From an uncultured Bacteroidia bacterium (GTDB lineage Bacteria > Bacteroidota > Bacteroidia > J057 > CALLMJ01), in the NCBI GenBank assembly GCA_964493765.1, contig CAZBPK010000022.1, forward strand, positions 9,958-73,957: DNA of 64,000 bases. The letters run 5' to 3'. Shown here one piece after another: positions 2,660 to 62,176 of the stretch. The notes beneath the pieces are model-generated. The model ran no database searches. It was not told where the DNA came from and worked only from the letters and a program-made list of their open reading frames with translations. A program made the translations under genes and the position numbers. The number at the start of each line of letters is the position of its first letter. Within the stretch, counting starts at the first letter, position 1.

Positions 2660-2790
2660 TTTGGGCGTGCCCCTTGCTATGCTGCGGGTCGGGCTGTTTT
2701 GGGCTTCGCTATCGCTTCGGCAATCCTTTGGATGCTCATACTTCGCAACCAAAGGCAGTGCCACTTTGTGCCCTTCACATCCCTCACGCA
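2660..2790 (+). repeat. GC-rich REP/MITE-like intergenic repeat, copy 1 (most divergent)
   Basis: ttgggcgtgccccttgctatgctgcgggtcgggctg...ggcagtgccactttgtgcccttcacatccctcacgca aligns by eye with copies at 11054, 28151, 32441 and 62046. Confidence 0.9.
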
Positions 2791-2911
2791 TTATCAAAAG
2801 CAAACTTTTTTTCACATATTTTTAATAGGATAATTTTTTATTAGGGTCAAAAAAAATTTGCAGTAAATAGATTTTTTTTATTTACTTTGTGGTTTAATAG
2901 AAAAAAGAAAA

Positions 2912-4618
2912 ATGGGTAAAGTCATTATAGATGGAAAAACTTATGAGTTTGAAGGAAAGCACTACTTACTTCAATTTGCATTGGATAATGGTGTAGAAAT
3001 TCCTTATTTTTGTTACCACCCTGCTATGTCATTGCCAACTAACTGTAGAATGTGTTTAGTAGAAACAGGCATGCCAATTATCAATCGTGAAACTAAACAA
3101 CCTGAATTAGATGAAAATGGAAATGTAAAAATTATGTGGGGTAGGAAGCCTTCAACAGCTTGTAATACTCCTCTCGCAGATGGAATGCATGTAAAAACTC
3201 ATAAAACCTCTAAAGTAGTAGAAAAAGCTCAAAAAGGTGTTTTAGAGTTTATGCTGATTAACCATCCCCTAGACTGCCCAATCTGTGACCAAGCAGGTGA
3301 ATGTCCTTTACAAATCAATACTTATAAATATGGTCCAGAAGGTTCTCGTTTTGAATTAGAAAAAGTTCATAAACCCAAAAGAATTCATTTAGGACCTCGT
3401 GTTGTTTTAGATGCTGAAAGATGTATCAATTGCACAAGATGCGTTCGTTTTTCTGAAGAAATATCAAAATCCAATCAATTAACTATTATTTCAAGAGGTG
3501 ATAAAAACTTTCCAGCAGCTGCTCCGGGTTTGGTATTTGACGACCCTTATTCAATGAACGTAATTGATATATGTCCTGTTGGTGCTTTAACTTCTGAATC
3601 TTTTCGCTTTAAAGCAAGAGTTTGGGAAATGAATTTTACACCCACTGTTTGCACTTCTTGTTCCAATAATTGCGCAGTAGATGTATGGGTACGTGATAAT
3701 GAAGTTCTTAGATTAACTCCTAGAAAAAATTTATCTGTAAACCAATATTGGATGTGTGATGATGGAAGATTGAATATTTCATGGTTAAATGAAAATCGTA
3801 TTTCTGGCGCAAAAGCGAAAGGTGATACCCCTATATCTATAGAAGATGCATTAAATGGCATTAAAGATTTACTCAGTCAGCATAAAGGAAAGGTTTTATT
3901 TATTGGTTCTGCGTTTTCAACATTAGAAAATCAATATGCTTTTAAGCAATTTGCAGGTGCTAATGGTTCTAATGAAGTTTTTTATGTTAAGCATATTGAT
4001 ACAAATTTTGGCGACAATTTCTTAAAGAAAAATGACAGAACTCCTAATGCTGCCGGTGCTGAATTAGTTGGCTTTAAGTCTATTTCTTTGGAAGAGTTGT
4101 CTGAAAAAATACAAAAAGTTGAAGTAGTTTATATTTTAGAAGACGATAAAACAGCAGAGGCTTTATCTAAACATGCTTCTCATAAGCCTTTTGTAGTTCA
4201 TGGTTTTAATTATGTGAAAGGTTATGAAAACTTTACTTATTTATTACCTGCTGCTACTCATACTGAACAAAATGGAGTATTTGTTAATGAAAAGCAAATT
4301 GCTCAAGTCTCGTTAATGGCTAGACAAATTAAAAGAATGACCCCTGATATGTGGATGTTATTACCCAAATCCCGTTTAGATGCTGGGGGTCAATTAACTG
4401 ATAATTGGAGAAATCCTGAGCATATTATTGATTGTTTACCTTCTTGGATGTTCTTCTCTTATATGTTCCCTGCTAATAAAGAACTGTTTAATCAAACCCA
4501 TTTGGAAATTTTTAATAAAATAAAATCCAAATTGCCGCTTATTAAGGACTTAAAATTACCCAAAAGACAAAGAAAAGAAGTATTCAAAATGAGCCAATTA
4601 GAATTTGCTCAAAAATAA
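2912..4618 (+). CDS. NuoG-like 2Fe-2S/4Fe-4S iron-sulfur oxidoreductase subunit (NADH-quinone oxidoreductase subunit G family)
   Basis: The N-terminus MGKVIIDGKTYEFEG...EIPYFCYHPAMSLPTNCRMCLVE (2Fe-2S ferredoxin-like) is followed by HPLDCPICDQAGECPLQ and CINCTRCVRF cluster motifs typical of NuoG/NADH-G. No other nuo genes are adjacent. Confidence 0.75.
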   Translation: MGKVIIDGKTYEFEGKHYLLQFALDNGVEIPYFCYHPAMSLPTNCRMCLVETGMPIINRETKQPELDENGNVKIMWGRKPSTACNTPLADGMHVKTHKTSKVVEKAQKGVLEFMLINHPLDCPICDQAGECPLQINTYKYGPEGSRFELEKVHKPKRIHLGPRVVLDAERCINCTRCVRFSEEISKSNQLTIISRGDKNFPAAAPGLVFDDPYSMNVIDICPVGALTSESFRFKARVWEMNFTPTVCTSCSNNCAVDVWVRDNEVLRLTPRKNLSVNQYWMCDDGRLNISWLNENRISGAKAKGDTPISIEDALNGIKDLLSQHKGKVLFIGSAFSTLENQYAFKQFAGANGSNEVFYVKHIDTNFGDNFLKKNDRTPNAAGAELVGFKSISLEELSEKIQKVEVVYILEDDKTAEALSKHASHKPFVVHGFNYVKGYENFTYLLPAATHTEQNGVFVNEKQIAQVSLMARQIKRMTPDMWMLLPKSRLDAGGQLTDNWRNPEHIIDCLPSWMFFSYMFPANKELFNQTHLEIFNKIKSKLPLIKDLKLPKRQRKEVFKMSQLEFAQK

Positions 4619-4683
4619 TTTCATTTTTTTTGTAACTTTTTAAAAATTTCAACGTATAATTGCATAACTAAACCATAAATTAT

Positions 4684-5295
4684 ATGTTTGAAAATTTAAT
4701 TAATAAAGTTCTTGGAATATTTAAAGGAGAAGTAGAAAAAAAAATATCTAATATTGTTTTTTCAAAAAGCATTTCAATTGATAATATTCCCCAAACAACA
4801 GAAGATTTTATAACATTTAGAGATAAACTTGCAACAACACCCGAAGGGGGAGTTGTTGCATTTTTAGTTGCTTGTTTAATTTATAATCAAAATGAGCAAA
4901 TTGGAAGAGAATGTATTATTATTCAAACAGATGCATCTCAATTACAACCTTCTAATGCTGGTTATAAGGGTTATGATTTAACATCATCAAATCATAACAT
5001 GATAATTCAACTAAGGCAAAAACCCTATATTATCAATTCATATATTCAAGGAACTTCATTTGAAAATGGATACTCACTTCCTAAATTACCGTTTAATTTT
5101 TCTATTGAGAAGAGTGAAGAAACTGATGGAGGAAAATATGTAAAAGTATTTGTCCGTTCTACTGGTGCTGATACAGCAAGACCTATTAGAATGAGTAAAA
5201 ATGATAAAGGGATTTGGAAAGGGATTGAGTTTTCTAGTTTGTTTGTTGGAGTGAATCCTCCCAAAAATAATGGTCCAAAAGCTGGAGATTTTTAG
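4684..5295 (+). CDS. Conserved hypothetical protein, paralogue 1 (no signal peptide)
   Basis: 203 aa. By-eye alignment suggests roughly 60% identity with the next ORF over about 170 aa (FITFRDK.ATTPEGG.VAF.VA...Y.QN...GREC.IIQTD.SQLQ.SN.GYKG.DLTSSN...STGAD.ARPI...KNDKGIWK..EFSS). I could not name a family. Confidence 0.6.
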   Translation: MFENLINKVLGIFKGEVEKKISNIVFSKSISIDNIPQTTEDFITFRDKLATTPEGGVVAFLVACLIYNQNEQIGRECIIIQTDASQLQPSNAGYKGYDLTSSNHNMIIQLRQKPYIINSYIQGTSFENGYSLPKLPFNFSIEKSEETDGGKYVKVFVRSTGADTARPIRMSKNDKGIWKGIEFSSLFVGVNPPKNNGPKAGDF

Positions 5296-5355
5296 GATTG
5301 GCACGGGTTTTGTCTTTGTACTAAAATTAAAAATTTAAACTTAAATTAAAATACC

Positions 5356-5946
5356 ATGAAAAAATTAGTTTTCTTATTCGCGTTATGTATTAGTTTTTTG
5401 GCTAATGCTCAAAAAACTATCACTGTAGACAAATTACCTAGCTCTACAGAAGAGTTTATTACTTTTAGAGACAAAATGGCAACGACCCCAGAGGGAGGTG
5501 CAGTTGCTTTTATTGTTGCTTCAATGCTTTATTCTCAAAACCCATCTATGGGAAGAGAATGTGTAATTATTCAAACCGATATGTCTCAATTACAACAATC
5601 TAATTCAGGATATAAAGGTTTTGACTTAACCTCTTCCAATAATTTTCAGTTAAAACAAATTGATAGCAGAAAACACATTCCTTTTTCTTATGTTCAAGGA
5701 ACAACCAATGAAAATGGTTATCAATTACCTGGTGGTGCAATGAAGTTCAAAATAGAACGCACCATGGATGCTGGTCCTAATATGATTAAAGTATTTGTTT
5801 GGTCCACAGGTGCAGATTCAGCTAGACCTATCACCTTAAAAAAGAATGATAAAGGTATTTGGAAACCAGTAGAATTTTCAAGCATTATGGTTGCGGTTCG
5901 TCCTCCAGTAGTAAAATCTAAAGGAGCTGTAGACGGCGACTTTTAA
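5356..5946 (+). CDS. Conserved hypothetical protein, paralogue 2 (secreted)
   Basis: 196 aa with an N-terminal signal peptide (MKKLVFLFALCISFLANAQ). Paralogous to 4684-5295. Confidence 0.65.
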   Translation: MKKLVFLFALCISFLANAQKTITVDKLPSSTEEFITFRDKMATTPEGGAVAFIVASMLYSQNPSMGRECVIIQTDMSQLQQSNSGYKGFDLTSSNNFQLKQIDSRKHIPFSYVQGTTNENGYQLPGGAMKFKIERTMDAGPNMIKVFVWSTGADSARPITLKKNDKGIWKPVEFSSIMVAVRPPVVKSKGAVDGDF

Positions 5947-5964
5947 TCTTACTAAAATATCAAT

Positions 5965-5997
5965 AAAAAAAGCATTCAGAAATGAGTGCTTTTTTTA
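5965..5997 (+). terminator. Rho-independent terminator
   Basis: The hairpin agcattca-gaaa-tgagtgct (5971-5990) is flanked by an A-run and followed by tttttt. Confidence 0.7.
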
Positions 5998-6052
5998 TTA
6001 TTTTTTTTAGCGTTAAATAAATTTTAATATTTTTTGACTTTTTCAATTAAAA

Positions 6053-6976: not shown

Positions 6977-7060
6977 TGGGTATTTTTTAAGTTTTAAAGG
7001 TAAATTTTTTTTAGGTACAAAATAAAATTGGCATTAACTTTGCCGTAATAAAACATAAAT

Positions 7061-7741: not shown

Positions 7742-7758
7742 ATATAACTTATAATACG

Positions 7759-7791
7759 AAAAAAGCTGCCATAAAGGCAGCTTTTTTTTTT
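7759..7791. terminator. Bidirectional rho-independent terminator between convergent genes
   Basis: aaaaGCTGCC-ataaa-GGCAGCtttttttttt; A-run on one side, T-run on the other. Confidence 0.75.
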
Positions 7792-7805
7792 CAAAAACTA
7801 TTCTT

Positions 7806-8207
7806 TTACTTGTTTGGTGAATAAGGGACTAATAAAACAGGTTTTATTATAACTTCTTTATAGGTAGGTTCTTTTGTAGGAGTGGTATTGGTGAGGTTTA
7901 CTATCTTTTTTTCTGATGAAAAAGCCTTTTGTTCTTGAATAGGAACCAAATTTTTGCTTTCTTGAATTTCTTTTACAGCATTTTCCTGTGTAATTTGTCC
8001 CGGTAAATTCTCTATTCTTTTGTTGGACGGTTTTATAGTATTGAGTTCATAAGGAATTAAGTTATTTTGGATGTTAACCTGCTTTACTCCATCGTTAAAA
8101 CTTGGTGGAGTATTAACGCTATTTTTTGTTATGGAAATAGGTTCTTGAGAAAACCCCTTTAAAAATATAAGCTCAAAACCTAGAAACAATAAAAACGTGT
8201 GTTTCAT
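7806..8207 (-). CDS. Hypothetical secreted protein
   Basis: 133 aa with an N-terminal signal peptide (MKHTFLLFLGFELIFLKGFSQ). The remainder is low-complexity and I recognised no family. Confidence 0.4.
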   Translation of the reverse strand: MKHTFLLFLGFELIFLKGFSQEPISITKNSVNTPPSFNDGVKQVNIQNNLIPYELNTIKPSNKRIENLPGQITQENAVKEIQESKNLVPIQEQKAFSSEKKIVNLTNTTPTKEPTYKEVIIKPVLLVPYSPNK

Positions 8208-8219
8208 AAATTGTTAATA

Positions 8220-10918
8220 TTAAGGTTTAATAACAGTAATCCTAAAATCCATTCCCATATAATTTGTCAATGGAGCTCTATTGAATACAATGAATCGTAT
8301 TTCGTTTGTTCTTGCTTCAACGTGTTCAATAACAACGCTAGGCGCTGTGCCCCAGTCTCCAACTAAATTAACAAATACCGCATCGGTAGACTGAAGCCCT
8401 GGCAAAAACCCAGTAATAGTGTAACGAGTGTTTGCGTTAATATTGGTAGGTGGATAATACCAAAGACTAATATTTTGGTTTACTGTTTTTATCCATCTTG
8501 TTCCATTCCAGTAATAGTATCCAGGAGATACATCATTGGGATAGGTGCCTGAAGTAGCAGTATTATAAACAATTAATCCTGTTGCGGGAGCAGTTACAGG
8601 AGCAGGGTTGTTGGAAGCTATTAAACTCACTCTGGGAGCTAAGAATCCTTTATTTGTAGAACTTACATCTAAAATCGCAGAAGCATCAGGAGTTCCTGTT
8701 CCAATACCTACATTACCATTAGAAGCAATACGCATTCTTTCTGCTCCATTAGTAGAAAAGCCTAATTCATCAATAGAAGCTCTAAATAAGCCTATATCAG
8801 AATCAGATTCCCAAGAATAAAAAGGGGCATTTGCAGTACCATTCGCTAAACCAAACACTTGATTTCCATTAGCAATACGGAATCGAGCTGTGTTGTTGGT
8901 TCTAAAAGTGAGTGGTTGTGCATCGGTTGTACCCACAAAGTTTACAGCTGCATCAGTACCAGCGTTTCCAAGTAACGCCCAATCATTTCCTGCACCATCT
9001 GTTAATCTTACCCATTCTGTGCCATTCCAATAATAATAACCGGGAGTTACTGCATTGATACCAGTCCCTGCAGTTGCTGTATTATAAACCAATAAGCTAT
9101 TGACGATACTCGCCCCAATAGGTGCGTTATTATTTCTTGCCACTAGGGCTACATTAGGGATTCTTACTCCTCTGTTATTGGCATTGACATCCAAAATAGC
9201 TGCATTAGATGGGGTTGTGTTGATACCTACATTACCTCCTGAAGTAACACGCATTTTCTCAGTATTATTAGTTCTTGTTACAAAGTCTTGGTTATCGGTG
9301 GTACCAATAAAATTGACGTTGGGGTCAGTACCTGCATTTCCTAGTAAAGTCCAATCGTTTGTAACATTGTCTATAAGTCTTACCCACTCTGTACCATTCC
9401 AATAATAATAGCCCGGAGTAACAGCATTCGCACCAGTCCCAGCAGTTGCTGTATTATACACTAATAAGCTATTAACGATACCTGCCCCAATAGGAGCGTT
9501 GTTATTTCTTGCCACTAGTGAACATTAGGTATTCTAATTCCTCTGTTGTTTGCATTGACATCCAAAATAGCTGCATTAGATGGGGTTGTGTTGATACCCA
9601 CATTGCCGCCAGAAGTTACACGCATTTTCTCAGTATTATTAGTTCTTGTTACAAAGTCTTGGTTATCGGTGGTACCTATAAAATTGACGTTGGGGTCAGT
9701 ACCTGCATTTCCTAGTAAAGTCCAATCGTTTGTAACATTGTCTATGAGTCTTACCCACTCTGTACCATTCCAATAATAATAGCCCGGAGTTACTGCATTG
9801 ATACCAGTCCCTGCAGTTGCTGTATTATACACTAATAAGCTATTAACGATACCTGCCCCAATAGGAGCGTTGTTATTTCTTGCCACTAGTGCAACATTAG
9901 GTATTCTAATTCCTTTGTTGTTTGCATTGACATCCAAAATAGCTGCATTAGATGGGGTTGTATTGATACCCACATTACCACCAGAAGTAACACGCATTTG
10001 TTACGTATTATTAGTTAGTGTTACGAAGTCTTGGTTATCGGTGGTACCAGTAAAATTGACGTTGGGGTCAGTACCTTCATTTCCTAGTAAAGTCCAATCG
10101 TTTGTAACAGTGTCTATAAGTCGTACCCACTCTGTACCAGTCCAATAATAATGGCCCGGAGTAACAGCATTCGCACCAGTCGCAGCAGTTGCTGTATTAT
10201 ACACTAATAAGCTATTGACGATACCTGCCCCAATAGGAGCGTTGTTATTTCTTGCCACTAGTGCAACATTAGGGATTCTAATTCCTCTGTTGTTTGCATT
10301 GACATCCAAAATAGCTGCATTAGATGGGGTTGTGTTGATACCCACATTGCCACCAGAAGTTACACGAACTCTTTCTGTACCACTTGTAGAAAGCCCAAGT
10401 TCATCTGCACCAGGATTAAATAAACCTGTATTAGCATCATTTTCCCAAGAATAAAAAGGAGCAGTTGCAGAGCCTCCGTTTAAACCAAACACTTGATTTC
10501 CATTAGCAATACGGAATCTAGCTGTGTTGTTGGTTCTAAAAGTTAATGCTTGTGCATCTGTTGTACCTACAAAATTATTATTGGAATTAGTTCCTAAATT
10601 TCCATTTATAAACCAAGCATCAGTAGCACCTCCAGCAGAAATACTCACCCATTTTGTTCCATCCCAATAATAAAATCCAGGAATTACATCATTTATTGTA
10701 GCTTGATTATAAACTAATAAACTCACCGCAGGGTTGGTAACAGGTGCAGGGTTAGTCGTAGCCACTAAATTTACACGAGGAATTAATACTCCTTTATCAG
10801 TGGAGACTACATCTAAACGTGCAGAAGCATCAGGGTTCAAAGTACCTATACCTACGCCTTGATTTTGAGCAAAAACTAACGAACTGCAAAATACGAATAG
10901 TATTAAACTTTTTTTCAT
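8220..10918 (-). pseudogene. Repetitive surface/tail-fibre-like repeat protein gene, disrupted (or misassembled)
   Basis: Three consecutive ORFs (10001-10978, 9515-9997, 8220-9515) form one reading frame family. The signal peptide MKKSLILFVFCSSLVFAQ starts at ATG 10918. Repeated modules read GNVGI.T..P....LDV.....G...P...L......AP.G..V.SLLVYNT......PG.YYWNGTEW. There is an in-frame TAA at 10001-10003, where sister repeats read gag-aaa (TEK). One nt is missing between 9520 and 9521 (gtgaacatt versus gtgcaacatt in sister repeats). Confidence 0.75.
8975..10375 (-). repeat. Tandem array of about 3.8 near-identical units of 369-370 bp (123 codons) inside the repeat-protein gene
   Basis: The same string (ggagt.ac.gcatt...ccagtccc.gcagttgctgtattata.ac.aataagctatt.acgata...gccccaatagg.gcgtt.ttatttcttgccactag) recurs at about 9041, 9412, 9786 and 10156, with only scattered substitutions. 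Confidence 0.9.
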
Positions 10919-11053
10919 AACTATTGTGTTGCTATTTAAAGAATTTTCAAAAATAAATGTAGTTTCATTACAATGCAACTAAAATTTTATTTTTTTTTAA
11001 AAGAAATTTTCATCAATTGTGGATTCACTTTATTTTATTGTAAGATTTTATCA

Positions 11054-11184
11054 TTTGGGCGTTCCCCTCACTACATTCGGGTCGGGCTGGCTACGGGTTT
11101 CACTTCGTTTCAGCAATCCTTTTTCCACTTTTTTCAAAAGTAGAAAAAGGCAGTGCCACTTCGTGCCCTTCGCATCCCTAACGC
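11054..11184 (+). repeat. GC-rich REP/MITE-like intergenic repeat, copy 2
   Basis: tttgggcgttcccctcactacattcgggtcgggctggctacgggtttcacttcgtttcagcaatcctttttccacttttttcaaaagtagaaaaaggcagtgccacttcgtgcccttcgcatccctaacgc. Confidence 0.9.
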
Positions 11185-11210: not shown

Positions 11211-11948
11211 TTAAGCTACTAACTCAGATATTTTTACAAATTCTTCAATGGATAGCTGTTCAGGTCTTAAAGTTTTATAATTTTCTGGTAATTCTGAAAT
11301 TATGGATTTTAAGCTATTCCCTAACATTTTCCTTCTTTGTTGAAATGCAGTTTTAACAATTTTAAAAAGTTTATCTTGTTGAAAATTAGGTATATTATGC
11401 TTTTTTTTGAGCGTAATTACGGCGGAATCTACTTTGGGCGGTGGAAAAAAAGCCCCTGGTTTTACTTGAAATTCTAATTTAGGTTCATAATATAATCCTA
11501 ATAAAACCGATAGAATTCCATAAGTTTTAGAGCCTGGTTTCGCTGTGATTCTTTCTGCAACTTCTTTTTGTATCATTACGGCAGCAAAATCAATTTTTTC
11601 ATAATTTTCAATAATGCGAAAAAAAATAGGAGACGAAATGTTATAAGGTAAATTTCCTATTAAGAAAATGGGGCTATCAGGAAAGCAGTAGGTTAAAATA
11701 TCTTGTTCAAGAATAGTGAGATTGGTAGAAGTAAAATGCTTTTTGAGGTATTCAATAGATTCTGAATCAATATCTAAAGCAAAAACGGAATTAGGTAATT
11801 CTTGTAGGAATTGGGTTAAAATACCTTTACCGGGACCCACTTCGATAATGGTGTGTGCATCAGATGGGGGTAAAAGGTTTACAATTTTTTGAGCAGTATG
11901 AGGCTGAATAAGAAAATGCTGCCCTAGATGCTTTTTGGGTTTAACCAT
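11211..11948 (-). CDS. rsmA: 16S rRNA (adenine1518/1519-N6)-dimethyltransferase RsmA/KsgA
   Basis: MVKPKKHLGQHFLIQPHTAQKIV..., SAM motif IIEVGPGKGILTQ, GNLPYNISSPIFF. Confidence 0.92.
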   Translation of the reverse strand: MVKPKKHLGQHFLIQPHTAQKIVNLLPPSDAHTIIEVGPGKGILTQFLQELPNSVFALDIDSESIEYLKKHFTSTNLTILEQDILTYCFPDSPIFLIGNLPYNISSPIFFRIIENYEKIDFAAVMIQKEVAERITAKPGSKTYGILSVLLGLYYEPKLEFQVKPGAFFPPPKVDSAVITLKKKHNIPNFQQDKLFKIVKTAFQQRRKMLGNSLKSIISELPENYKTLRPEQLSIEEFVKISELVA

Positions 11949-11990: not shown

Positions 11991-12000
11991 AATGTTATTG

Positions 12001-12072
12001 TCGGAATGGCGGGACTTGAACCCACGACCTCTTGCACCCCAAGCAAGTGCGCTACCTCTGCGCTACATCCCG
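12001..12072 (-). tRNA. tRNA-Pro (anticodon GGG)
   Basis: Hand-folded cloverleaf on the minus strand: acceptor CGGGATG/CATTCCG (one G-U), D arm GCGC-agaggta-GCGC, anticodon arm CTTGC-ttGGGgt-GCAAG, T arm GTGGG-ttcaagt-CCCGC, discriminator A. No encoded CCA. Confidence 0.9.
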
Positions 12073-28089: not shown

Positions 28090-28150
28090 GCAAATATAAT
28101 AAAATTTCAAAATAAATTGAAAACAAAACAGAAATAATTGAATTAGACTT

Positions 28151-28252
28151 TTTCGGGCATGCCCCATGCTATGCTGCGGGTCGGGCTGCTATGGGTTTCA
28201 CTTCGTTTCAGAAATCCTTTTTCCACTTTTTTCAAAAGTGCATCCCTCACGC
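28151..28252 (+). repeat. GC-rich REP/MITE-like intergenic repeat, copy 3 (about 29-bp internal deletion)
   Basis: tttcgggcatgccccatgctatgctgcgggtcgggctgctatgggtttcacttcgtttcagaaatcctttttccacttttttcaaaagtgcatccctcacgc. It contains the perfect hairpin CACTTTT-ttc-AAAAGTG. Confidence 0.9.
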
Positions 28253-32412: not shown

Positions 32413-33930
32413 ATGTCATTAAAAAAATTGAATCAATTTATTTGGGCGTGTCCCTTCGCTAACGCTACGGGTCGGGCTGCTTCGGGTTTCACTTCGTTTC
32501 AGCAATCCTTTTCGCTTCGCTCAAAGGCAGTGCCAAGCCCTTCGCATCCCTCACGCTTATCCCTAAGCCTTGCTTTTCTCCTATTAATCCCCTTTTTACA
32601 TTCCAAAGCCCAAAATTCTCAAGACTCTTCCCTAAAACCACTTCTTTACTACTTCCAGAATGGTAAAACTTCTGGTTTATGGAGAAATCATTTTATGTAC
32701 ACCGATAACCAAAAGAACCTTATTGACTTCGGAGCTCTTGCCACAGGCTTAAATATCAACTACAAAACATTTACTCTCAAAAATTTTTCTTTCTCAGCAG
32801 GATTTTCTGCTGTTGGAAATGTTTGGCAACAAAATCTTTTAGCTCGTGACCCTCAAACTAATCAACCTTCTCGATATGAAATCGGCTTATATGATGTTGC
32901 TAATCCTAATAACTACAAAGCAGTTTTCTTACTTTCTGAATTAGCATTGAATTATTCTTATAAAAATTGGAAAGCTACTTTGGGTAAACAACTCATCAAA
33001 ACCACTTTTATCAATCCACAAGATGGTAGGATGGTGCCTACTTTGGTAGAAGGCTTGTACGTCCAAAAACAAGAAAAAAAATGGGATTTAGAGTTTGGAT
33101 ATTTATATAACATTGCACCGCGTGGAGTTTCTAAATGGTACTCCGTTGGGCAATCGATTGGCATTTATCCACAAGGAGTCCAAGAGAATAGTAAACCTTC
33201 ACAATACGCTGGGAATACTTTTTCCAATGGAATTGGCTTATTAGGCTATCAAAGAAACATTAGTAACTTTATGAAAATCAAAATCCACAATTTGTACGTG
33301 GATAATATCATGAATACCGCATTTTTGCAAACTGATTTTTTTAAAAATGATACTGCTCATCATTCTAAATGGAGTTTAAGCGGACAAATCATCAGGCAAG
33401 ATGGAGTTGGTAACGGTGGTAATATGGAGGTGAATAAAAGATATTTTATAAGAAACGGTAAAAGTTTAACTTTTGGTTGTCGTTTAGCTTGGGAAAATAC
33501 AAAGTGGAATGTTTCATTAAATTATAACAGAATTACTACCTTAGGAAGATTTTTAATTCCCCGAGAATGGGGCATAGAACCTTTTTTTACTTTTATTCCC
33601 CGTGAACGTTCCGATGGTTTTGGTGATGCTCACGCTTACGCTTTAAAAACAGTTTTCATTCCTCATAAATCCTTAAAACTTGGCTATCAATCTGCTTTTG
33701 TGCAATTACCCGATGTCAAAAATTATGCTTTAAATAAATACGGTATGCCTTCTTACTGGCAAAATAATTTAGAAATCCGCTTTTATCCAAATGCTATCTT
33801 TAAAAATTTAGAAGTCTTTGTTTTAATTGTACATAAGTATAACATTGGAGAAACTTATAACGAAAACCGATTCATTTTTAATCGTACCAATATGTTTCAG
33901 TGGAATTTGATTACCAATTATAGGTTTTAA
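32413..33930 (+). CDS. Outer-membrane beta-barrel (porin-like) protein with repeat copy 4 embedded in frame in its 5' end
   Basis: Alternating amphipathic strands and a C-terminal ...NLITNYRF. A signal-peptide-like LSLSLAFLLLIPFLHSKAQ follows the repeat. The only in-frame ATG (32413) lies upstream of the repeat. Starts 2 nt after the cytochrome c stop. Confidence 0.6.
   Translation: MSLKKLNQFIWACPFANATGRAASGFTSFQQSFSLRSKAVPSPSHPSRLSLSLAFLLLIPFLHSKAQNSQDSSLKPLLYYFQNGKTSGLWRNHFMYTDNQKNLIDFGALATGLNINYKTFTLKNFSFSAGFSAVGNVWQQNLLARDPQTNQPSRYEIGLYDVANPNNYKAVFLLSELALNYSYKNWKATLGKQLIKTTFINPQDGRMVPTLVEGLYVQKQEKKWDLEFGYLYNIAPRGVSKWYSVGQSIGIYPQGVQENSKPSQYAGNTFSNGIGLLGYQRNISNFMKIKIHNLYVDNIMNTAFLQTDFFKNDTAHHSKWSLSGQIIRQDGVGNGGNMEVNKRYFIRNGKSLTFGCRLAWENTKWNVSLNYNRITTLGRFLIPREWGIEPFFTFIPRERSDGFGDAHAYALKTVFIPHKSLKLGYQSAFVQLPDVKNYALNKYGMPSYWQNNLEIRFYPNAIFKNLEVFVLIVHKYNIGETYNENRFIFNRTNMFQWNLITNYRF
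32441..32556 (+). repeat. GC-rich REP/MITE-like repeat, copy 4 (short variant, inside an ORF)
   Basis: tttgggcgtgtcccttcgctaacgctacgggtcgggctgcttcgggtttcacttcgtttcagcaatccttttcgcttcgctcaaaggcagtgccaagcccttcgcatccctcacgc. Confidence 0.9.
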
Positions 33931-55778: not shown

Positions 55779-57164
55779 TTACAAAGATAAAGATTTTAAC
55801 CAATCCCAAGCAGTTGCATCTTTTTCATAAAACTCTAAATAAGTTAACAAATGCTCTTTCGCTTGTTTTTTATTTCCTAAAACAATGTGATACATGGCTG
55901 CTGTAAAATTATAATCTGGATCACGAGGATCTATTTGTTTAGCTAAATAAAGGTATTTTTCTACTTCATTCATTTTCCTAAACTTTAAATAATATTGAGC
56001 CAAGGCTGTAAAAATATGAGGTTCTTTAGGCTTTTTTTCTAATAACTTTCGCAATGTTTCCTCTGTTTGATAATAATTTTTGGCAAAAAAATACGCTTTT
56101 GCTAACATCAAATAGTGATTTTCATCAGGAATATTTTTGACTAAAAGAGAAGCTGATTTAACGCATTCTTTATAATTTTCCATTTCAAATTGAAATTGAA
56201 TATAGTTGTAATAAACAGGTTTATAGTAATTATCGATTTCAATCGCTTTTTCAAAGTGCTTTCTTGCTTGGAGAGTATCTTTTTCTAAAAATTTAATAAG
56301 TGATAATAAAGAATGCCCCACCGCTTGATTATTCAAATAAGGTAAATGAGCTAACCAATGATGATACAAAGAATCAGAACTATTTTTTAGAACCATTGGA
56401 AGCCTCCAAGTTTTAAAACTCATTTCTCCAAATTCATAATCGGTTAATTGTAAAATAAAATTTATAGTTTCTATGTAAGTTTTTAGAATATGCAAAGACT
56501 TATAATCAGGATTTTTTTTTATTTCTTTGTCAAGCAAAGCATAATCATCATGTATTCCATAATAGGCATTTTCATAAAAATTTAAAATTACTAAGTTATA
56601 TATAGCTTTTAAATGGGTGGGTTTTTGGTTTAAGATTTGTTGAGAGAGAAGTTTGGCTTGTTCATAATTTTGATTTTCAAGACAATAATCCAAATAAAAC
56701 TCTTTGACTTTGAATTCTTCAGGGTAATATTTTAAGGCTGAGTCTAATAAATTCATTTGTAAAAATTTATCTTTTTTGATACGATTATACTCAGAAGCAT
56801 GCAAAAGCCCTAACATATCCTTCGGATTTTGAGATAATTTTTTATCTATAGTATTTTTGTATCGTATGAGAGTATTTTTTTGACCCTCTAAATTATAAAT
56901 GTATCCTTGAACTTCATAAAGCCTTAATATGCTATCCAAATCGTTAGGATTTTTTTCTAAATATTTGGATAATTGAGTTTGATAGTTGTATGAATAAATG
57001 GGATAAGAACTTTCTAAATCTGTAGAAGATAAAGCAAATTGAAGGTTATTATTTTTGTTAAAAATATAAATATTAGAATCAATCTCTTGTGCAGTGATGG
57101 TTCGTTGCCCATGAACTTGAAGGGAAAACAACAACAAGAAAATAGATAAAATGTATTTATTCAT
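55779..57164 (-). CDS. Tetratricopeptide (TPR) repeat protein, secreted
   Basis: Signal peptide followed by multiple TPR-like helical pairs (..AK.YF....Y..A...L...L...P). Starts 1 nt upstream of the DUF4159 gene. Confidence 0.65.
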   Translation of the reverse strand: MNKYILSIFLLLFSLQVHGQRTITAQEIDSNIYIFNKNNNLQFALSSTDLESSYPIYSYNYQTQLSKYLEKNPNDLDSILRLYEVQGYIYNLEGQKNTLIRYKNTIDKKLSQNPKDMLGLLHASEYNRIKKDKFLQMNLLDSALKYYPEEFKVKEFYLDYCLENQNYEQAKLLSQQILNQKPTHLKAIYNLVILNFYENAYYGIHDDYALLDKEIKKNPDYKSLHILKTYIETINFILQLTDYEFGEMSFKTWRLPMVLKNSSDSLYHHWLAHLPYLNNQAVGHSLLSLIKFLEKDTLQARKHFEKAIEIDNYYKPVYYNYIQFQFEMENYKECVKSASLLVKNIPDENHYLMLAKAYFFAKNYYQTEETLRKLLEKKPKEPHIFTALAQYYLKFRKMNEVEKYLYLAKQIDPRDPDYNFTAAMYHIVLGNKKQAKEHLLTYLEFYEKDATAWDWLKSLSL

Positions 57165-57243
57165 TTTGGGTAATTATAGTAGATATTTTATTTTACGTAG
57201 AAACTCTTTCATAAGTTTCTAACCCATTGGAATTTTAAAAAAA

Positions 57244-57918
57244 TTACCTAGCTCTTCTACCCTCTCCTTCTATAACCATTTGCATGGATAAACTTAAATG
57301 CATCATTTTATCATTACCACTTTGTGTTCCTAACTTACCGATGTTATCCAAATAATCGGTTGTAGTGAAAACATAAAAATAATTTAAACCCACACTAAAA
57401 TTTCTAGAAAGCTTAAAATCAAAACCTAAATTTAAAGGAAAGTTTAAGGTATTAGAAGCATAAGATTCACCGGGCATTCTGGTGGATAATACGGTGGATA
57501 AATTTTGGTTTTGTTCATTTTTGGGAGTAAAATGTAAAAGTCCTAATCCTAAACCTAAAAATGGACTTACAGGACTTTTAAAGAGAGGTCTAAATTTTAA
57601 AGAAAAAGCTGCATTAACAAAAGGAGTTTTTACAAAAGCATTTGGTTGGCGACCTTCCACAGGAGGTAAATTTCTTGTTTGAGCAATAAATTTACCGATA
57701 ATAATATGAAACCCGGGCATAAACATTTTTTGAGTTTCAAAACCTAAACTTAAATGGACTCCCGGATAAAAACGGTGCATTTTTTCATTAGCGTTTAAAT
57801 CCCCGAAATAGGTATTTCCTGAATATCCAATACCTATTCGTGGACCTTTAACGCTAATTTGAGCGTGGTTATTATGTAGGATAAAAAATAAAGATACTAA
57901 CAAAAACCACTTTTTCAT
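57244..57918 (-). CDS. Outer-membrane beta-barrel protein (small porin/OmpA-barrel-like)
   Basis: Signal peptide MKKWFLLVSLFFILHNNHAQ followed by alternating beta-strand pattern with aromatic girdles. Confidence 0.6.
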   Translation of the reverse strand: MKKWFLLVSLFFILHNNHAQISVKGPRIGIGYSGNTYFGDLNANEKMHRFYPGVHLSLGFETQKMFMPGFHIIIGKFIAQTRNLPPVEGRQPNAFVKTPFVNAAFSLKFRPLFKSPVSPFLGLGLGLLHFTPKNEQNQNLSTVLSTRMPGESYASNTLNFPLNLGFDFKLSRNFSVGLNYFYVFTTTDYLDNIGKLGTQSGNDKMMHLSLSMQMVIEGEGRRAR

Positions 57919-57931
57919 CTTTTAATAATTT

Positions 57932-58471
57932 TTAGAAATTTTCAAAACCAATGTCTTGTAATTCTTCTTGGGTAGCGGGTCTAACATTTACAATTTTACC
58001 AGCAAAATGTAAATCTTTACCAGCTAATTCATGATTAAAATCTAGTGTAACTTGTTCTAATCCTACATGATGAACTTTTGCCATAAATTGATTTCCTTGT
58101 TGGTCCATTAATTGAATGTGATTACCAACTTTGATATTTTCAGCGTCAAATTGTCCATTCTCATTTAAAAAATGTTCAATAGGAAAAGGGATAATATTTT
58201 CTTGCTTTTTTTCTCCATAAGCTTCATTTGCAGGAATCCAAAAATCAAAAGTATCACCAGCAATTTTACCAGCAATAGCTTTTTCAAAACCGGGTATTAA
58301 TTGACCTGCTCCAAATAAAAAGATAAATGGATCTTTTTCTGGGGTTTCTTGAATACTGATTTCTTCGGTACCTAAATCATTTTTTACGGTTAAATGGTAA
58401 GTAAGTGTTACCACTTTCTTGGGTTCTATAATCATTTGTTTAAAAAAAACGCAATTTAAGGATTTTTTCAT
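57932..58471 (-). CDS. FKBP-type peptidyl-prolyl cis-trans isomerase (SlyD/FkpB-like)
   Basis: KKVVTLTYHLTV...FIFLFGAGQLIPGFEKAIAGK.AGDTFDF.IP..EAYGE...LAGKDLHF...V. The start is uncertain: either the track ATG at 58471 or the internal Met of MIIEPKK near 58434. My hand count across the homopolymer run 58438-58449 did not reconcile the two. Confidence 0.8.
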   Translation of the reverse strand: MKKSLNCVFFKQMIIEPKKVVTLTYHLTVKNDLGTEEISIQETPEKDPFIFLFGAGQLIPGFEKAIAGKIAGDTFDFWIPANEAYGEKKQENIIPFPIEHFLNENGQFDAENIKVGNHIQLMDQQGNQFMAKVHHVGLEQVTLDFNHELAGKDLHFAGKIVNVRPATQEELQDIGFENF

Positions 58472-58686
58472 TATTCCAATGTTTTTCTAATCGTTTTTTG
58501 ATTTTGATATTTGAATTTTATTCTTTGAGTCTTGAATTTTCAATCATTATTTTTGTTCTCAAAAATCAATTCAGGTAAAATAGAAAACCATATCAGCCCG
58601 AAGAGTGGCAATCCAATCAACTAATTACATTTACATTTTATCCACTTTTATTGGTTGCCGAATATTTTTTTTATAATTTTGCAACG

Positions 58687-60561
58687 ATGCAAAAAAATGT
58701 TGGTAATTCTTTAATTCACCACCTTCTATTTTTCGTTTTATTTTTTATTTCTTCAGGATGTTCTCATGCTGAACCCTGCTACTCATGTCCTGAATATATT
58801 GAACAAAAAATTTATTACGAAAAAAAATATCCCTTCATAAGATACCATTACAACATTTTTCAATGGTCTGATTATAAAGCGATAGAACCTATGGTTCAGT
58901 CTATGAAAAATATTGGTTCCCGAAAACTTAAAGTTATTCATTTTGGGGATTCTCACGTTCAAGCAGATATATTTACTCACGAAATAAGGACTAGATTACA
59001 AAAAGTTTTTGGGGAAGGGGGGAGAGGAATGGTTTTCCCTTACTCTGCAGCAAGAACACATCCCGGCTCCGATTATACTACAACTTTTACGGGTCTTTGG
59101 GAAAGTGCGAAAAATGTCCAGTTTCAACCCAAATTAGATATTGGAATTTCTGGTGTTACCATCAAAACCTTAGATAAAAAAGCTACTTTCACCATTCGTT
59201 TTGCTCCTAATCCTCAACATGCAAATAATAGAATTTTAAAAATTTACCGAAAATATTCAGAAAATAGTTTTGATTTAAAGATTTTACCTAGTGGAGTTCA
59301 ACAATCAGCTATTTATGTCAATACAAAATTAAATCCTGACAAGCCTTACGTAGAAGTAGAATTACCTAAAGCTAGTGATAATCTAACTTTTTATATCTAT
59401 CAATCTGAAAAAAATCAAACTTTTTTTGAGTGTCATGGTATATCCTTTGAAACTCCTGAAAATCAAGGAATTTTATACCATAGTGTTGGAATCAATGGAG
59501 CAGGATTTTTAAGTATTTTAAGGCAAAACCTCATGGACCAACAAATTGCAGAAATGCAACCTGATATTCTGGTTATTGATTTAGGTGGCAACGATTATTA
59601 TGCAGGGATTAATGAACCCATGTATGAATATAATTTAAGAGCCATTATTAACCGATTTAAAAATGCAGCACCCAATTCTACAGTCATTATTTCATGCTCT
59701 CATGATCTTTACAGAGGTGGTTTAAGCATTCCAGAAGTTGGTAAGGCTCAGGCTATTGCTAAACGAGTAGCTTTTGATACCCAATCTGTTTTTTTTGATT
59801 ATTATAACGTTTCTGGTGGTCGTTATTCTATGTTAGAATGGCATAAAAATAACCTTAGCCAATGGGATAGAGTGCATCTGAATTTTCCTGGTTATAAACT
59901 TAGAGGTGAACTTTACGCTAATGCTTATCTGAATACTTACCATCAAATCTTACTCAACGGAATTTTTGATAAATCCGATTTGAGTTTGATTGTAATAAAT
60001 AAAGAAGAACCCCAAAAAATTCCAACAGCTTTAGTAGAAAACACGCATTCTCATAAAAAAGATGAAAATAAAATAGAAAAAAAAGTACCTGTTAAAGCTT
60101 GGCATAGAGTAAACAAAGGAGAATATTTATCCACATTAGCAGATAAATATGAAGTTTCTGTCTCTGATATTCAAAAATGGAATTTAATTAGAGGGAACAC
60201 CATTTATGCAGGTCAGTATTTAACGATTTATACCGATTCTAGCTTAGTACCTAAAAAACAGATTATTCAAATAATAGTACCTCTAAGCACTAAAAATCAA
60301 CAAGTACATGTTTCAAATAATCCCAAAAACACTACCTTAAAACCTCAGAATAACCAAATATCTTCAAACTCTTCTAATCAAAACTCCATCAAACCTCTGA
60401 ATAATACAAATACCCAAACTTCTAAAAAGTACACCGTAAAAAGTGGTGATAATTTATGGCTTATTGCAAAAAAACATCATACTTCTGTAGAAAAACTATT
60501 GAAACTCAATCCGGGAAAAGATAAAAAATTAATGCCCGGTGATATTCTTAATTTGCCTTAA
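58687..60561 (+). CDS. SGNH/GDSL-type hydrolase/acyltransferase lipoprotein with two C-terminal LysM domains
   Basis: Lipobox LFFVLFFISSGC-S from ATG 58687 (the track start at 58651 is TTG). Block I HFGDSHVQ, then LGGNDY. Two LysM motifs: HRVNKGEYLSTLADKYEVSVSDIQKWNL and YTVKSGDNLWLIAKKHHTSVEKLLKLNP. Confidence 0.75.
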   Translation: MQKNVGNSLIHHLLFFVLFFISSGCSHAEPCYSCPEYIEQKIYYEKKYPFIRYHYNIFQWSDYKAIEPMVQSMKNIGSRKLKVIHFGDSHVQADIFTHEIRTRLQKVFGEGGRGMVFPYSAARTHPGSDYTTTFTGLWESAKNVQFQPKLDIGISGVTIKTLDKKATFTIRFAPNPQHANNRILKIYRKYSENSFDLKILPSGVQQSAIYVNTKLNPDKPYVEVELPKASDNLTFYIYQSEKNQTFFECHGISFETPENQGILYHSVGINGAGFLSILRQNLMDQQIAEMQPDILVIDLGGNDYYAGINEPMYEYNLRAIINRFKNAAPNSTVIISCSHDLYRGGLSIPEVGKAQAIAKRVAFDTQSVFFDYYNVSGGRYSMLEWHKNNLSQWDRVHLNFPGYKLRGELYANAYLNTYHQILLNGIFDKSDLSLIVINKEEPQKIPTALVENTHSHKKDENKIEKKVPVKAWHRVNKGEYLSTLADKYEVSVSDIQKWNLIRGNTIYAGQYLTIYTDSSLVPKKQIIQIIVPLSTKNQQVHVSNNPKNTTLKPQNNQISSNSSNQNSIKPLNNTNTQTSKKYTVKSGDNLWLIAKKHHTSVEKLLKLNPGKDKKLMPGDILNLP

Positions 60562-60567
60562 TTCAAA

Positions 60568-62040
60568 ATGGACTTTTGGAAATTTTTTACATATTCAACG
60601 GAGTACTTACCTACATTTACATCTGGCATTTTTGCCATTTTTTTTGTCTTTTTTTATTTGATTTGGTCTATTACTCAACACCAAATCAAATTAAGAAATA
60701 TTGTTTTATTGGTTTTTAGTTTATATATTTATTATAAACTAGCGAACGAATTTGTTCTCCTTTTAATATTATATGCTATAATTGATTATTTTATTGCCTT
60801 ACAAATTCATAAAGAAAAAAAGGATAGCCTCAAAAAACTTTTGCTTTATACAAGTATTATTGTAAATATTAGTATCTTGTTTGTTTTCAAATACTTAGGA
60901 TTTACTCTTCAAACTTGGAATCTTTGGACAGGTCAAGAGATTTTTATTCCGCAAATTATAGTACCTTTAGGAATTTCTTTTTGGATTTTCAGAAGTCTTT
61001 CTTATATTTTTGATGTTTACAATGAAATGATTGAAGAACCCGAAACCAATTATTTTCATTACCTACTCTATTTAAGCTACTTCCCAACCATTTTAGCAGG
61101 TCCTATTAGTAAAGCAGAACCTTTTTTGAAACAAATTAAAAATAATACCCAAGTGGACGACAAAATCATTAGTTTGGGTTATTGGTTAATCATTTGTGGA
61201 CTAGCAAAAAAAATAATTTTATCAGACCCAATGGGTTCTAATTTTGTTCAAAGAATTTTTGAAAATCCTGGTTTTTATACAGGTTTAGAATCACTATTGG
61301 CGGCTTTCGCTTATGGATTTTATTTATATTATGATTTTTCTGGTTATACCGATATGGCAATCGGAATGAGTTTGTTAGTAGGTATTCAAATTCCACAAAA
61401 TTTTAACGAACCCTTTAAATCTCAATCTATTACAGAATTTTGGAGACGTTGGCATATTACTTTATTTCAGTGGTTTAACGACTATGTTTTTACACCCTTA
61501 AATTTTTCATTAAGAAGTTGGGGTAAATCTGCTGCAATTTTTAGCATGATGGTAACATTTTTATTATCAGGGATTTGGCATGGAGCTAATTTTACATTTA
61601 TCGTTTGGGGGCTTTTACATGGAATTGCTATTAGCTATGAAATTGCAACTCAAAAATTTCGTATCACTTTAAAAAATTTCTGGGGTCCACATTTTCATAC
61701 CATTTTCAGCATTTTGATTACTTATACCTTTCTTACTTTTACATTTTTCTTTTTCAATTCCCCTTCATTGGAAAGCACTTTCAAAATGTTTGATAGAATC
61801 TTGAATGATTTTCATGCAGAATTATTTATGAAGTGGTACGATGAATACCAATTGGTAGCTCATATTTTGCTGGCTGGTATGATTTTACATTTTATTCCAA
61901 CCTCATGGAAACAATTTTTTGAATCACAATTTATAGTTTTACATTGGAGCTTAAAAATTGTGGTGATAGTGATAATGGTAATAGTGATTTATCAATTTAA
62001 AACCTTGGGTTCTATACCTTTTGTTTATTTACAGTTTTAG
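60568..62040 (+). CDS. MBOAT family membrane O-acyltransferase (AlgI/PatA/DltB-like)
   Basis: Multi-pass membrane protein with the conserved FWRRWHITL and the catalytic-His region SGIWHGANFTFIVWGLLHG. Starts 6 nt after the SGNH-LysM gene. Confidence 0.88.
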   Translation: MDFWKFFTYSTEYLPTFTSGIFAIFFVFFYLIWSITQHQIKLRNIVLLVFSLYIYYKLANEFVLLLILYAIIDYFIALQIHKEKKDSLKKLLLYTSIIVNISILFVFKYLGFTLQTWNLWTGQEIFIPQIIVPLGISFWIFRSLSYIFDVYNEMIEEPETNYFHYLLYLSYFPTILAGPISKAEPFLKQIKNNTQVDDKIISLGYWLIICGLAKKIILSDPMGSNFVQRIFENPGFYTGLESLLAAFAYGFYLYYDFSGYTDMAIGMSLLVGIQIPQNFNEPFKSQSITEFWRRWHITLFQWFNDYVFTPLNFSLRSWGKSAAIFSMMVTFLLSGIWHGANFTFIVWGLLHGIAISYEIATQKFRITLKNFWGPHFHTIFSILITYTFLTFTFFFFNSPSLESTFKMFDRILNDFHAELFMKWYDEYQLVAHILLAGMILHFIPTSWKQFFESQFIVLHWSLKIVVIVIMVIVIYQFKTLGSIPFVYLQF

Positions 62041-62045
62041 GTTCA

Positions 62046-62176
62046 TTTGGGCGTGCCCCTTGCTACGCTGCGGGTCGGGCTGCTACGGGTTCCACTTCGT
62101 TCCAGCAATCCTTTTTCCACTTTTTTCAAAAGCGTTAAAAGGCAGTGCCACTTCGTGCCCTTCGCATCCCTCACGC
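62046..62176 (+). repeat. GC-rich REP/MITE-like intergenic repeat, copy 5
   Basis: tttgggcgtgccccttgctacgctgcgggtcgggctgctacgggttccacttcgttccagcaatcctttttccacttttttcaaaagcgttaaaaggcagtgccacttcgtgcccttcgcatccctcacgc. Confidence 0.9.

Follow-up and report, generated by a model that had tools for sequence, protein, structure and literature searches.

Five GC-rich repeats lie in the same orientation within a 64,000-nucleotide stretch of the genome of an uncultured Bacteroidia bacterium (contig CAZBPK010000022.1, positions 9,958 to 73,957; hereafter 'the window'), and belong to a family of small structured insertion elements that appears to be undescribed in the literature and databases searched. 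The family is spread in multiple copies across the Bacteroidota and into some Spirochaetota, and its members share a conserved single-strand fold consisting of a helix that joins the two ends (P1), a variable hairpin (P2), a long helix interrupted by G.A mismatches (P3), the core hairpin (P4) and distal arms that vary. They generate no target site duplication, land beside A/T-rich sequence and have an orientation that is correlated with GC skew. In our judgement, the chances are roughly even that the five repeats represent a small insertion element that is non-autonomous and is mobilised via its folded single strand, a mechanism that we infer. An enzyme acting in trans would recognise the purine-rich strand folded as single-stranded DNA, most likely while this strand is exposed as the lagging-strand template, by analogy with the handling of IS200/IS605 elements and repetitive extragenic palindromic (REP) sequences by HUH (Y1) nucleases. 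Mini-hairpins of the GCGAAGC type would stabilise the folded state, and the copies would afterwards either be kept intact, through selection or through gene conversion from other copies, or be left to decay.

A profile of the five copies, when searched against the window with nhmmer, gives exactly five matches, all on the + strand (E = 2e-42 to 2.5e-25): copy 1 at 2660..2790 (131 nt, 56.5% GC), copy 2 at 11054..11184 (131 nt), copy 3 at 28151..28252 (102 nt), copy 4 at 32441..32556 (116 nt) and copy 5 at 62046..62176 (131 nt), the last being the top-scoring match to the family profile. The full profile found no further credible copies on either strand of the window, and a profile of the core alone recovers the same five. 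These are the repeats listed in an initial annotation of the window: they can be aligned with one another (76% mean column identity, including flanks), carry the shared boxes that were named there and are much richer in GC (50-58%) than their surroundings (about 32%, ranging over 28-38% in 2-kb segments of the window). Likewise, copy 3 does have an internal deletion, of around 30 nt, and copy 4 has a shortened centre plus a 5-nt gap.

Further members were sought by scanning one genome per species with an exact 21-base core pattern, which identified at least 96 loci; the family counts are lower bounds, and the positions fixed by the pattern are invariant by construction. All copies have a common layout, in which a 5' box, (TTT)GGGCGTGCCCC, precedes a variable stretch (2-128 nt), after which come the core, GGGTCGGGCTG-N4/5-GGGNTNCRCT(N)TCGYTNCNG, between one and three variable arms, and a 3' box, GCCCTNCGCATCCCTCACGC. 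The element encodes no protein, and is 81-130 nt long in its compact form, the distance between the P1 strands ranging from 81 to 395 nt across the family. In copy 5, the 5' strand of P1 (GCGTG, 62051..62055) pairs with CACGC at 62172..62176, and is followed by P2 (62056..62075), a variable hairpin closed by CCC(C)/GGG(T), which in other family members holds 2-128 nt of unrelated sequence. The 5' strand of P3, GGGCTGCTACGGG (62077..62089), pairs with CCCTTCGCATCCC (62158..62170), with three interspersed mismatches that are G.A or A.G on the minus strand. Enclosed within P3 are the P4 core hairpin, TTCCACTTCGTTCCA (62090..62104; UGGAACGAAGUGGAA on the minus strand), in which a closing pair is followed by a 3x3 GNA/GNA internal loop, then by two further pairs and the GAA loop, and the distal arms (62105..62157), comprising an arm formed by GCAATCCTTTT...AAAAGGCAGTGC and topped by a CACTTTT/AAAAG hairpin, and then CACTTCGTG. 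Both the sequence and the number of these distal arms vary from lineage to lineage.

The best-supported helix of the family is P1, formed by the complementary extreme ends GCGTG...CACGC to which the initial annotation had drawn attention. Since a full-element MAFFT/RNAalifold analysis misaligned the 3' end, P1 was tested in an alignment-free manner, each box being placed without reference to the other. Thirteen sequence classes are represented among the 5 nt that follow CCCT; among the 32 elements with a non-consensus tail, the exact reverse complement is present in the element's own 5' box in 27, and the consensus GCGTG is retained in none (0/32), compared with a control rate of 3.4% for matches to the boxes of other classes. 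Within P4, the core pair B20-B35 (C-G 51, G-C 30, T-A 4, non-pair 1) ranks first in an unbiased mutual-information scan, which also recovers B24-B31 (G-C 80, A-T 6) and the P1 columns; of these core pairs, the first is Watson-Crick in 99% of cases, through three pair types, and the second in 100%, through two. P3, in which GGGCTG-NNNN-GGG pairs with CCC-NNNN-CATCCC, was predicted independently by RNAalifold and by single-sequence DNA folding. There are four Watson-Crick types at the closing pair of the arm hairpin NGC-GA-CC-GAAA-GG-GA-GCN. Of 52 distinct inserts, unrelated in sequence, 48 allow P2 to close end to end. The covariation score on the block alignment is 0.156, against 0.066 +/- 0.006 when shuffled (0/500 reach the observed score) and 0.116 in the best slid register, with 78% of cells paired as against 50% or fewer in slid registers. 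The 5' 'palindrome' GGGC-GT-GCCC of the initial annotation is not a hairpin: covariation pairs its GCGTG with the 3' CACGC, and the CCC(C) that comes next with the core GGG(T), on the far side of the variable hairpin.

Other small sequences are found within or beside the variable parts of the element. In the orthologous Chryseobacterium copies L049, L092 and L094, the P2 hairpin has acquired a small perfect palindrome (CTCATAGGTTTTTAAAAACCTATGAG and variants), which shows that nested insertions are tolerated there. A second, unrelated repeat, GTCATTGCGARCGAAGYGAAGCAATC, in which GCGAAGC occurs twice, adjoins or nests in the variable arms of elements in Bacteroidia SKW94 and Chryseobacterium (L019 2780-2805, L042 994-1019, L041 3124-3149, L081 1640-1665 and L095 101-126); it was not found in the window, even with three mismatches allowed.

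The strand originally described is not the one that folds better, which is its complement, the minus strand of the window. Read on the + strand, conserved mismatches take the form of T.C and C.T, with loops of TTC, TTTC and TTAC; on the minus strand, the same positions become G.A pairs and GAA, GAAA and GUAA loops. RNA folding gives the minus strand the greater stability in 61 of 66 elements, with a mean difference of 5.6 kcal/mol, a figure that includes the nearest-neighbour bonuses given to purine-rich loops. With DNA parameters, the minus strand also has the better z-scores, and its minimum-energy fold reproduces P1 and P3. If only Watson-Crick pairs are allowed, minus-strand folds contain 107 purine.purine against 14 pyrimidine.pyrimidine single mismatches, along with 36 tandem GA/GA loops. 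The counts of G.U against A.C pairs, tried as a guide to the folded strand, were uninformative (13 vs 9): G.U pairs are rare and have no strand bias. So few G.U pairs are uncommon in a functional RNA and accord with DNA, without being decisive.

Many of the minus-strand apexes correspond to mini-hairpin DNA, which takes two forms, GCGNAGC and GCGNNAGC, and has been found at phage G4-type origins and at RSF1010 ssiA (PMC13037366). As short DNA oligomers, GCGAAGC, GCGATAGC, GCGAAAGC, GCGACAGC and GCGAGAGC are reported to melt at 71-76.5 C, as against 33 C for GCTTTTGC and 65 C for CCGAAAGG (PMC13037366). In 63 of 86 elements, the minus-strand core is GCGAAGC or a close A-U-closed variant and has no loop insert; in the other 23, it is a tetraloop form with a one-base insert (GCGNNAGC or an A-U-closed variant, such as ACGACAGT in L002); the forms with one extra loop base include GCGATAGC, GCGAAAGC, GCGACAGC and GCGAGAGC. 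In the window, copy 1 has the one-base-insert form, GCTATCGC (GCGATAGC on the minus strand), and copies 2-5 have a single core variant in common, which suggests either homogenisation between them or a recent common source. Both CCGAAAGG and the ssiA motif CCGAAGG recur in the arms of elements. In total, strict mini-hairpin motifs number 243 on the minus strand and four on the plus strand, against approximately 42 (maximum 59) in dinucleotide shuffles. The formation of mini-hairpins in single strands of the element is thus far a thermodynamic prediction. The first 12 nt of the minus strand of every copy, GCGTGAGGGATG, are also found as a 12-mer in cyanobacterial 16S rRNA (PMC9030849); this match was treated as a coincidence, as the small subunit rRNA models of Rfam miss the element.

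The boundaries of the element are asymmetric. On the left, T-T-T-G-G stands before P1 and is itself preceded by A/T-rich sequence, even in GC-rich hosts; on the right, P1 is followed by two purines. The T-rich motif is present on the left side only, and the flanks are unconserved beyond -12 and +2. Direct repeats flanking the element are no longer than expected, the mean longest being 2.2 nt against 2.34 nt when permuted (79 copies). The ends are complementary over just 5 bp (GCGTG/CACGC), the next bases being CCCC and AGGG, and hairpins adjoin both of them (P2 at one end and the 3' part of P3 at the other) while the ends pair with each other.

The strict co-orientation of the five window copies, for which replication-strand or transcription-related selection had been suggested as a possible cause, is not significant alone, as its two-sided chance probability is 1/16. 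Neither does it hold as a rule for the family: adjacent copies in other genomes are in the same orientation in two cases and in opposite orientations in three when counted within loci, or seven and four, respectively, when counted along contigs, and the occurrence of opposite-orientation copies within 3 kb of one another means that any strand bias is partial. An effect of the replication strand is nevertheless apparent at the level of the family, using GC skew as a proxy. Read in the orientation of the initial annotation, the skew of the 8-kb flanks is negative in 55 of 84 loci, in 50 of 72 after orthologous and duplicate loci are collapsed (binomial p = 0.0013, Wilcoxon p = 3e-5) and in 33 of the 40 at which its absolute value exceeds 0.05 (p = 4e-5); that of the whole window, -0.026, has the same sign. 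The leading strand of bacterial chromosomes is usually G-rich, a rule that may not hold for these taxa; taken together with this rule, the GC skew bias indicates that the purine-rich, well-folding strand tends to be the lagging-strand template. An orientation related to transcription is not supported, since relative to genes called with a crude open reading frame (ORF) caller the copies are nearly symmetric (24 co-directional, 17 anti-directional, 13 divergent and 10 convergent).

Evidence that the element is an insertion is provided by copy 4, which the initial annotation placed within a coding 5' end. It lies inside codons 10-48 of an OprD-family porin ORF (32413..33930, + strand), the insertion being in the signal-peptide codons. 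Judged from the open frame, the predicted N-terminus consists of MSLKKLNQF, 39 repeat-encoded residues and LSLSLAFLLLIPFLHSKAQ; homologues of the porin are mostly 451-476 aa in length, with ordinary signal peptides. In the window the element is present and the frame is open from the upstream ATG. The porin of L110 (P0001, 84% identity) also has an open frame, and contains the element in a degraded state, with mutated boxes and a 24-nt insertion. In L107 (P0002, KatS3mg035, 75% identity) the element is intact, and the upstream ATG does not share the reading frame of the porin. The element is absent from the porins of L108 and L109 (P0003-P0005, 62-69% identity), which have plain signal peptides such as MKRLFVILFFGQILNAQ. 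A cytochrome c gene is directly upstream of the porin in all four genomes, filled and empty alike, and the elements of L107 and L110 are at the same codon as copy 4. The three filled copies share a lineage-specific GTGTCCC box, CTTCGGG spacer and short core, and therefore represent one ancestral insertion about nine codons into the porin gene. Comparison of such filled and empty sites shows that the element inserts at new sites, including within coding sequence. The fates of the copies have since diverged: in L110, the closer relative, every conserved box is mutated (GGGCG to GTGCG, GGGTCGGG to GGGACGGG and CATCCCTCACGC to CAACCCTCTCGC), and in L107, the more distant relative, every box is kept. 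Relative to the window copy, L107 has two doubly compensated core pairs (T-A to C-G and A-T to G-C) and a different loop, which is still of a minus-strand mini-hairpin form, GCGTTAGC.

Among the matches listed, the hosts are mostly Bacteroidota, including Chryseobacterium, Hymenobacter, Schleiferia thermophila, Chitinophagales, Cyclobacteriaceae, Sphingobacteriaceae and Flavobacterium, with Spirochaetota represented on long contigs by Leptospiraceae KatS3mg129, two uncultured Spirochaetota and Leptospira idonii. A match in Opitutaceae, which lacks the end boxes, is probably due to chance. There are at least 14 copies in each of Chryseobacterium bin4 and Bacteroidia SKW94, at least 12 in Chitinophagales SKYG42 and at least nine in Schleiferia, and the multiple copies within Chryseobacterium bin4, within Schleiferia and within SKW94 are near-identical, a sign of recent amplification. 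Host loci range from 25% to 63% in GC content, and the elements from 48% to 80%. The nearest relatives of the window among the matches listed are Bacteroidia SKW94 and Bacteroidia KatS3mg035, and the closest outside match to the window copies among those listed is in a metagenome-assembled genome of the Leptospiraceae (57 bits). Many of the hosts listed are hot-spring or thermophilic organisms (SKW94, SKYG42, SKYG25, KatS3mg027, KatS3mg035, KatS3mg129, HBSIN02 and Schleiferia thermophila), although this is not a measured enrichment. This shared setting, which includes the Leptospiraceae genome with the closest listed outside match, suggests transfer within a habitat. BLAST searches of plasmid and phage collections gave no match; the core pattern occurs in seven of 2.9 million viral contigs (IMG/VR, L098-L104), one of which, L103, has a near-full element. 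A metagenome scan for the window subfamily found only two contigs, from another organism.

The genes adjoining the copies are unrelated, which marks the repeats as a dispersed family and not as a signal tied to particular genes, and a gene-specific leader or riboswitch is ruled out both by these unrelated neighbours and by the symmetric orientation. The element also matches no family in Rfam (release 15), whether at the gathering score or at E <= 10: searches of the window returned only a tRNA-Pro, nothing relevant was found for copy 5 at E <= 10, and no match overlapped the element in 16 conserved related loci. An Acido-Lenti-1 RNA match (43.7 bits, with a gathering score of 37) was seen in Chryseobacterium, at L092 4567-4612, 1.3 kb from an element. 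Descriptive searches of the published literature found no account of the family, and the strings of four conserved boxes gave irrelevant matches.

Within the window, copy 1 has on one side what is left of a type ISP restriction-modification enzyme and on the other a NuoG-like gene (2912-4618, +). The remnant (1566-2636, -) retains the coupler domain only (ORF 2247-2570, -), and its frame, as noted in the initial annotation, runs up to the repeat, reaching a stop approximately 20 nt from copy 1; the breakpoint of a deletion or rearrangement may therefore coincide with the element. The ORF at 2497-2844, which spans copy 1, was correctly suspected of being spurious: it has no Pfam match, and a Pfam search of the repeat-derived spurious ORFs found nothing. 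Copy 2, whose end helix is a compensated variant (GCGTT/AACGC), lies between two minus-strand genes, one at 10001-10978 and the other ksgA-like (11211-11948). A tRNA-Pro(GGG) gene at 12000-12072 (-), the sole Rfam/ARAGORN match in the window, is approximately 0.8 kb from copy 2, with no evident link between the two. In copy 3, the deletion of around 30 nt takes out the 3' strand of the inner P3 helix, and the end helix has an A.C mismatch. This copy does supply the apparent ATG and first five codons (MGHAR) of a ceramidase ORF (26350-28167, -), as had been claimed, although the Pfam domain begins only at residue 34, and Met27 and Met33 lie outside the repeat. Copy 5 is flanked by convergent genes, encoding an MBOAT protein (60568-62040, +) and an M1 peptidase (62362-63984, -). 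Other genes adjoining copies encode an AAA ATPase and a SoxA/TsdA cytochrome c. A Logan contig from the same organism (L097, SRR8581213) is 100% identical to window positions 56200-62071 and stops inside the start of copy 5, from which it follows that the repeat breaks short-read assemblies.

A number of observations weigh against mobilisation via a folded single strand. Neither the window flanks examined nor the 96 eight-kb loci listed revealed a transposase, an HUH nuclease or a partner gene that recurs; across these loci, all-against-all ORF clustering returned only common paralogues (ABC ATPase, SprB) and synteny groups (one locus shared by six Hymenobacter genomes, and two others shared by six and by four Chryseobacterium genomes). 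Copies with compensated helices occupy orthologous loci in six Hymenobacter and six Chryseobacterium genomes, and such orthologous retention could signify a host-level function rather than selfish mobility; the Hymenobacter orthologues have differing, mostly compensated forms of P1 (GTGCA/TGCAC, GGCTG/CAGCC, GCTG/CAGC), P1 being unclear in two. The Bacteroidetes-dominated RAYT subclass 2.6 has 'atypical' REPs (PMC6006769); these were compared with the element and ruled out, those listed being simple hairpins of 24-35 nt. The whole-element fold with paired ends differs from the build of both REPs and the ends of IS200/IS605 elements. Copies in opposite orientations occur less than 3 kb apart, the skew of 8-kb flanks is a mere proxy for the direction of replication, and the energetic advantage of the minus strand is in part a product of the nearest-neighbour bonuses.

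The covariation in several helices is also what would be expected of a structured non-coding RNA family or a cis-acting RNA module transcribed from the minus strand, whether a small RNA, a protein-binding or stabilising element, or a self-cleaving ribozyme borne on a mobile repeat. The GAAA, GUAA and GAA loops and tandem GA/GA mismatches of this strand are classic RNA motifs, the elements form GC-rich islands in AT-rich genomes, and the retention of compensated copies at orthologous Hymenobacter and Chryseobacterium loci would suit an RNA equally well. We nevertheless consider an RNA unlikely. With gene-relative orientation nearly symmetric (24/17/13/10), transcription would yield the poorly folding strand from around half of the copies unless they had promoters of their own, and no conserved promoter-like or terminator-like flank was seen; the Bacteroidota-type -7 box (TAnnTTTG), inspected by eye, is not consistently present at the TTTG of the 5' box. 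Furthermore, the rare G.U pairs show no strand bias (13 vs 9), the dominant apex is a GAA triloop that is exceptional in DNA rather than in RNA, Rfam has no match, and the one copy in coding sequence has the weaker strand in the sense orientation. Slightly less probable again is that the copies are inert, decaying repeat DNA, their structure inherited from a single structured ancestor and now without activity or function. The divergence of the window copies would be accounted for in this way, as would the deletion in copy 3, the shortening of copy 4 and the loss of boxes from the L110 orthologue, but the compensatory changes, which affect the core pairs and no fewer than nine classes of P1, would not, nor would the recent amplification implied by near-identical sets in Chryseobacterium bin4, Schleiferia and SKW94, nor the preservation of all boxes in the distant L107 when the closer L110 has lost them.

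It is improbable, in our view, that the host has domesticated the elements as a single-stranded DNA signal, one that was dispersed during an earlier mobile phase and now acts on the lagging-strand template as an entry site for primase or the primosome, in the manner of G4 origins or ssiA, or as a structure that excludes SSB or resists nucleases. The approximately six-fold enrichment on one strand of mini-hairpins of the G4-origin and ssiA type, the tendency of that strand to be the G-rich one, and the survival of intact copies with compensated changes over long divergence (L107 against the window) all agree with such a role; however, copy number varies widely among related genomes, and copies decay (L110), suffer internal deletion (copy 3), land in coding sequence and lie next to others of opposite orientation, all of which a selfish element fits better than a required signal. 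A classical MITE (miniature inverted-repeat transposable element), that is, a deletion derivative of a DDE-transposase insertion sequence (IS) moved as double-stranded DNA by its terminal inverted repeats, would likewise be small, multi-copy and intergenic, with A/T-rich sites and complementary extreme ends. Such an origin is nonetheless very hard to credit, given terminal complementarity of only 5 bp, no duplication above the permuted control, strong strand asymmetry, covarying internal helices and the lack of a related full-length IS in the 96 listed loci. Returning to an element mobilised via its folded single strand, a more far-reaching version, which we advance tentatively and think somewhat unlikely, is that it represents a new class of mobile or genome-structuring single-stranded DNA element: a module of approximately 100 nt spanning a phylum, its purine-rich strand folded into a defined shape of five helices made from mini-hairpin DNA motifs and G.A pairs and read on the lagging-strand template by an HUH nuclease of new specificity or by a component of the primase or primosome, its copies kept alike by gene conversion.

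These repeats have consequences for annotation, as the family breaks short-read assemblies, makes spurious ORFs and false start codons, and lengthens the predicted N-terminus of a porin; a model of the family would clean up the annotation of Bacteroidota. More broadly, a whole-element fold is maintained by compensatory change in a small repeat across a phylum and into the Spirochaetota. The element is built around sequences known to give DNA hairpins of exceptional stability, and its orientation follows strand asymmetry. This raises testable questions as to which enzyme would mobilise it, and whether mini-hairpin DNA has a natural chromosomal role beyond phage and plasmid origins. The stability of the hairpins could matter in hot-spring hosts, of which there are many among those listed.

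Among known systems, the REP/MITE-like label initially given to these repeats does not fit, as the element lacks the defining features of both, having no duplication, terminal complementarity of 5 bp, five helices and no GTAG/CGTC tag. MITEs such as Correia/NEMIS and that of Porphyromonas gingivalis (PMC4596501) resemble the element in being short, non-autonomous and dispersed, and in being able to create or alter ORFs and gene starts. Terminal inverted repeats of approximately 10 bp or more and a target site duplication are expected of a MITE, however, whereas the element has 5 bp of complementarity and no duplication; it is also strongly strand-asymmetric and lacks the long inverted repeats of the Correia/NEMIS and P. 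gingivalis elements, and no autonomous IS with its ends was found in the window or the 96 eight-kb loci listed. The REP, BIME and REPIN families are similarly GC-rich, extragenic, multi-copy and non-coding, do not generate target site duplications, and are recognised as folded single-stranded DNA by RAYTs (TnpA-REP, HUH Y1 nucleases); the classical RAYT-associated REPs in a published table often have GCGAAGC or CCGAAGG apexes, as does the element. By contrast, a REP consists of one imperfect palindrome, 20-40 nt long, bearing a 5' tag of the GTAG/CGTC type, and often occurs in inverted pairs; the element folds asymmetrically into five helices over 81-130 nt or more, its ends pair, and it has neither a tag nor inverted doublets. 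A check for the cognate enzyme found no RAYT or recurrent HUH-like neighbour in the 96 eight-kb loci listed.

IS200/IS605 elements and PATEs also lack terminal inverted repeats and duplications, and have a one-sided, short, A/T-rich target motif; their dependence on single-strand structure and their orientation bias towards the lagging-strand template (PMC6006769) match the skew-linked bias of the element. In IS200/IS605, the ends have separate left and right subterminal hairpins, whereas the whole fold of the element is closed by an end-to-end helix. Neither tnpA nor tnpB was found near the element in the loci examined, and the transposon-associated RNA families of Rfam gave no match. Rickettsia palindromic elements are structured repeats of approximately 100-150 nt that can be tolerated in-frame within protein-coding genes. 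Their open frames within genes are paralleled by copy 4, but they are unrelated in sequence and in host lineage, and in-frame tolerance is not a rule for the element, as the frame through it in L107 is broken. The attC sites of integrons work as one folded strand with paired ends, one strand being preferred and structure being kept over sequence. The element differs from them in lacking RYYYAAC/GTTRRRY boxes and cassette arrays, its copies being 4-30 kb apart among housekeeping genes. Finally, the core and several of the arm apexes of the element are exactly mini-hairpin DNA sequences on the minus strand, but whereas known mini-hairpins are single hairpins in replication origins, those of the element are embedded in a larger, dispersed mobile repeat.

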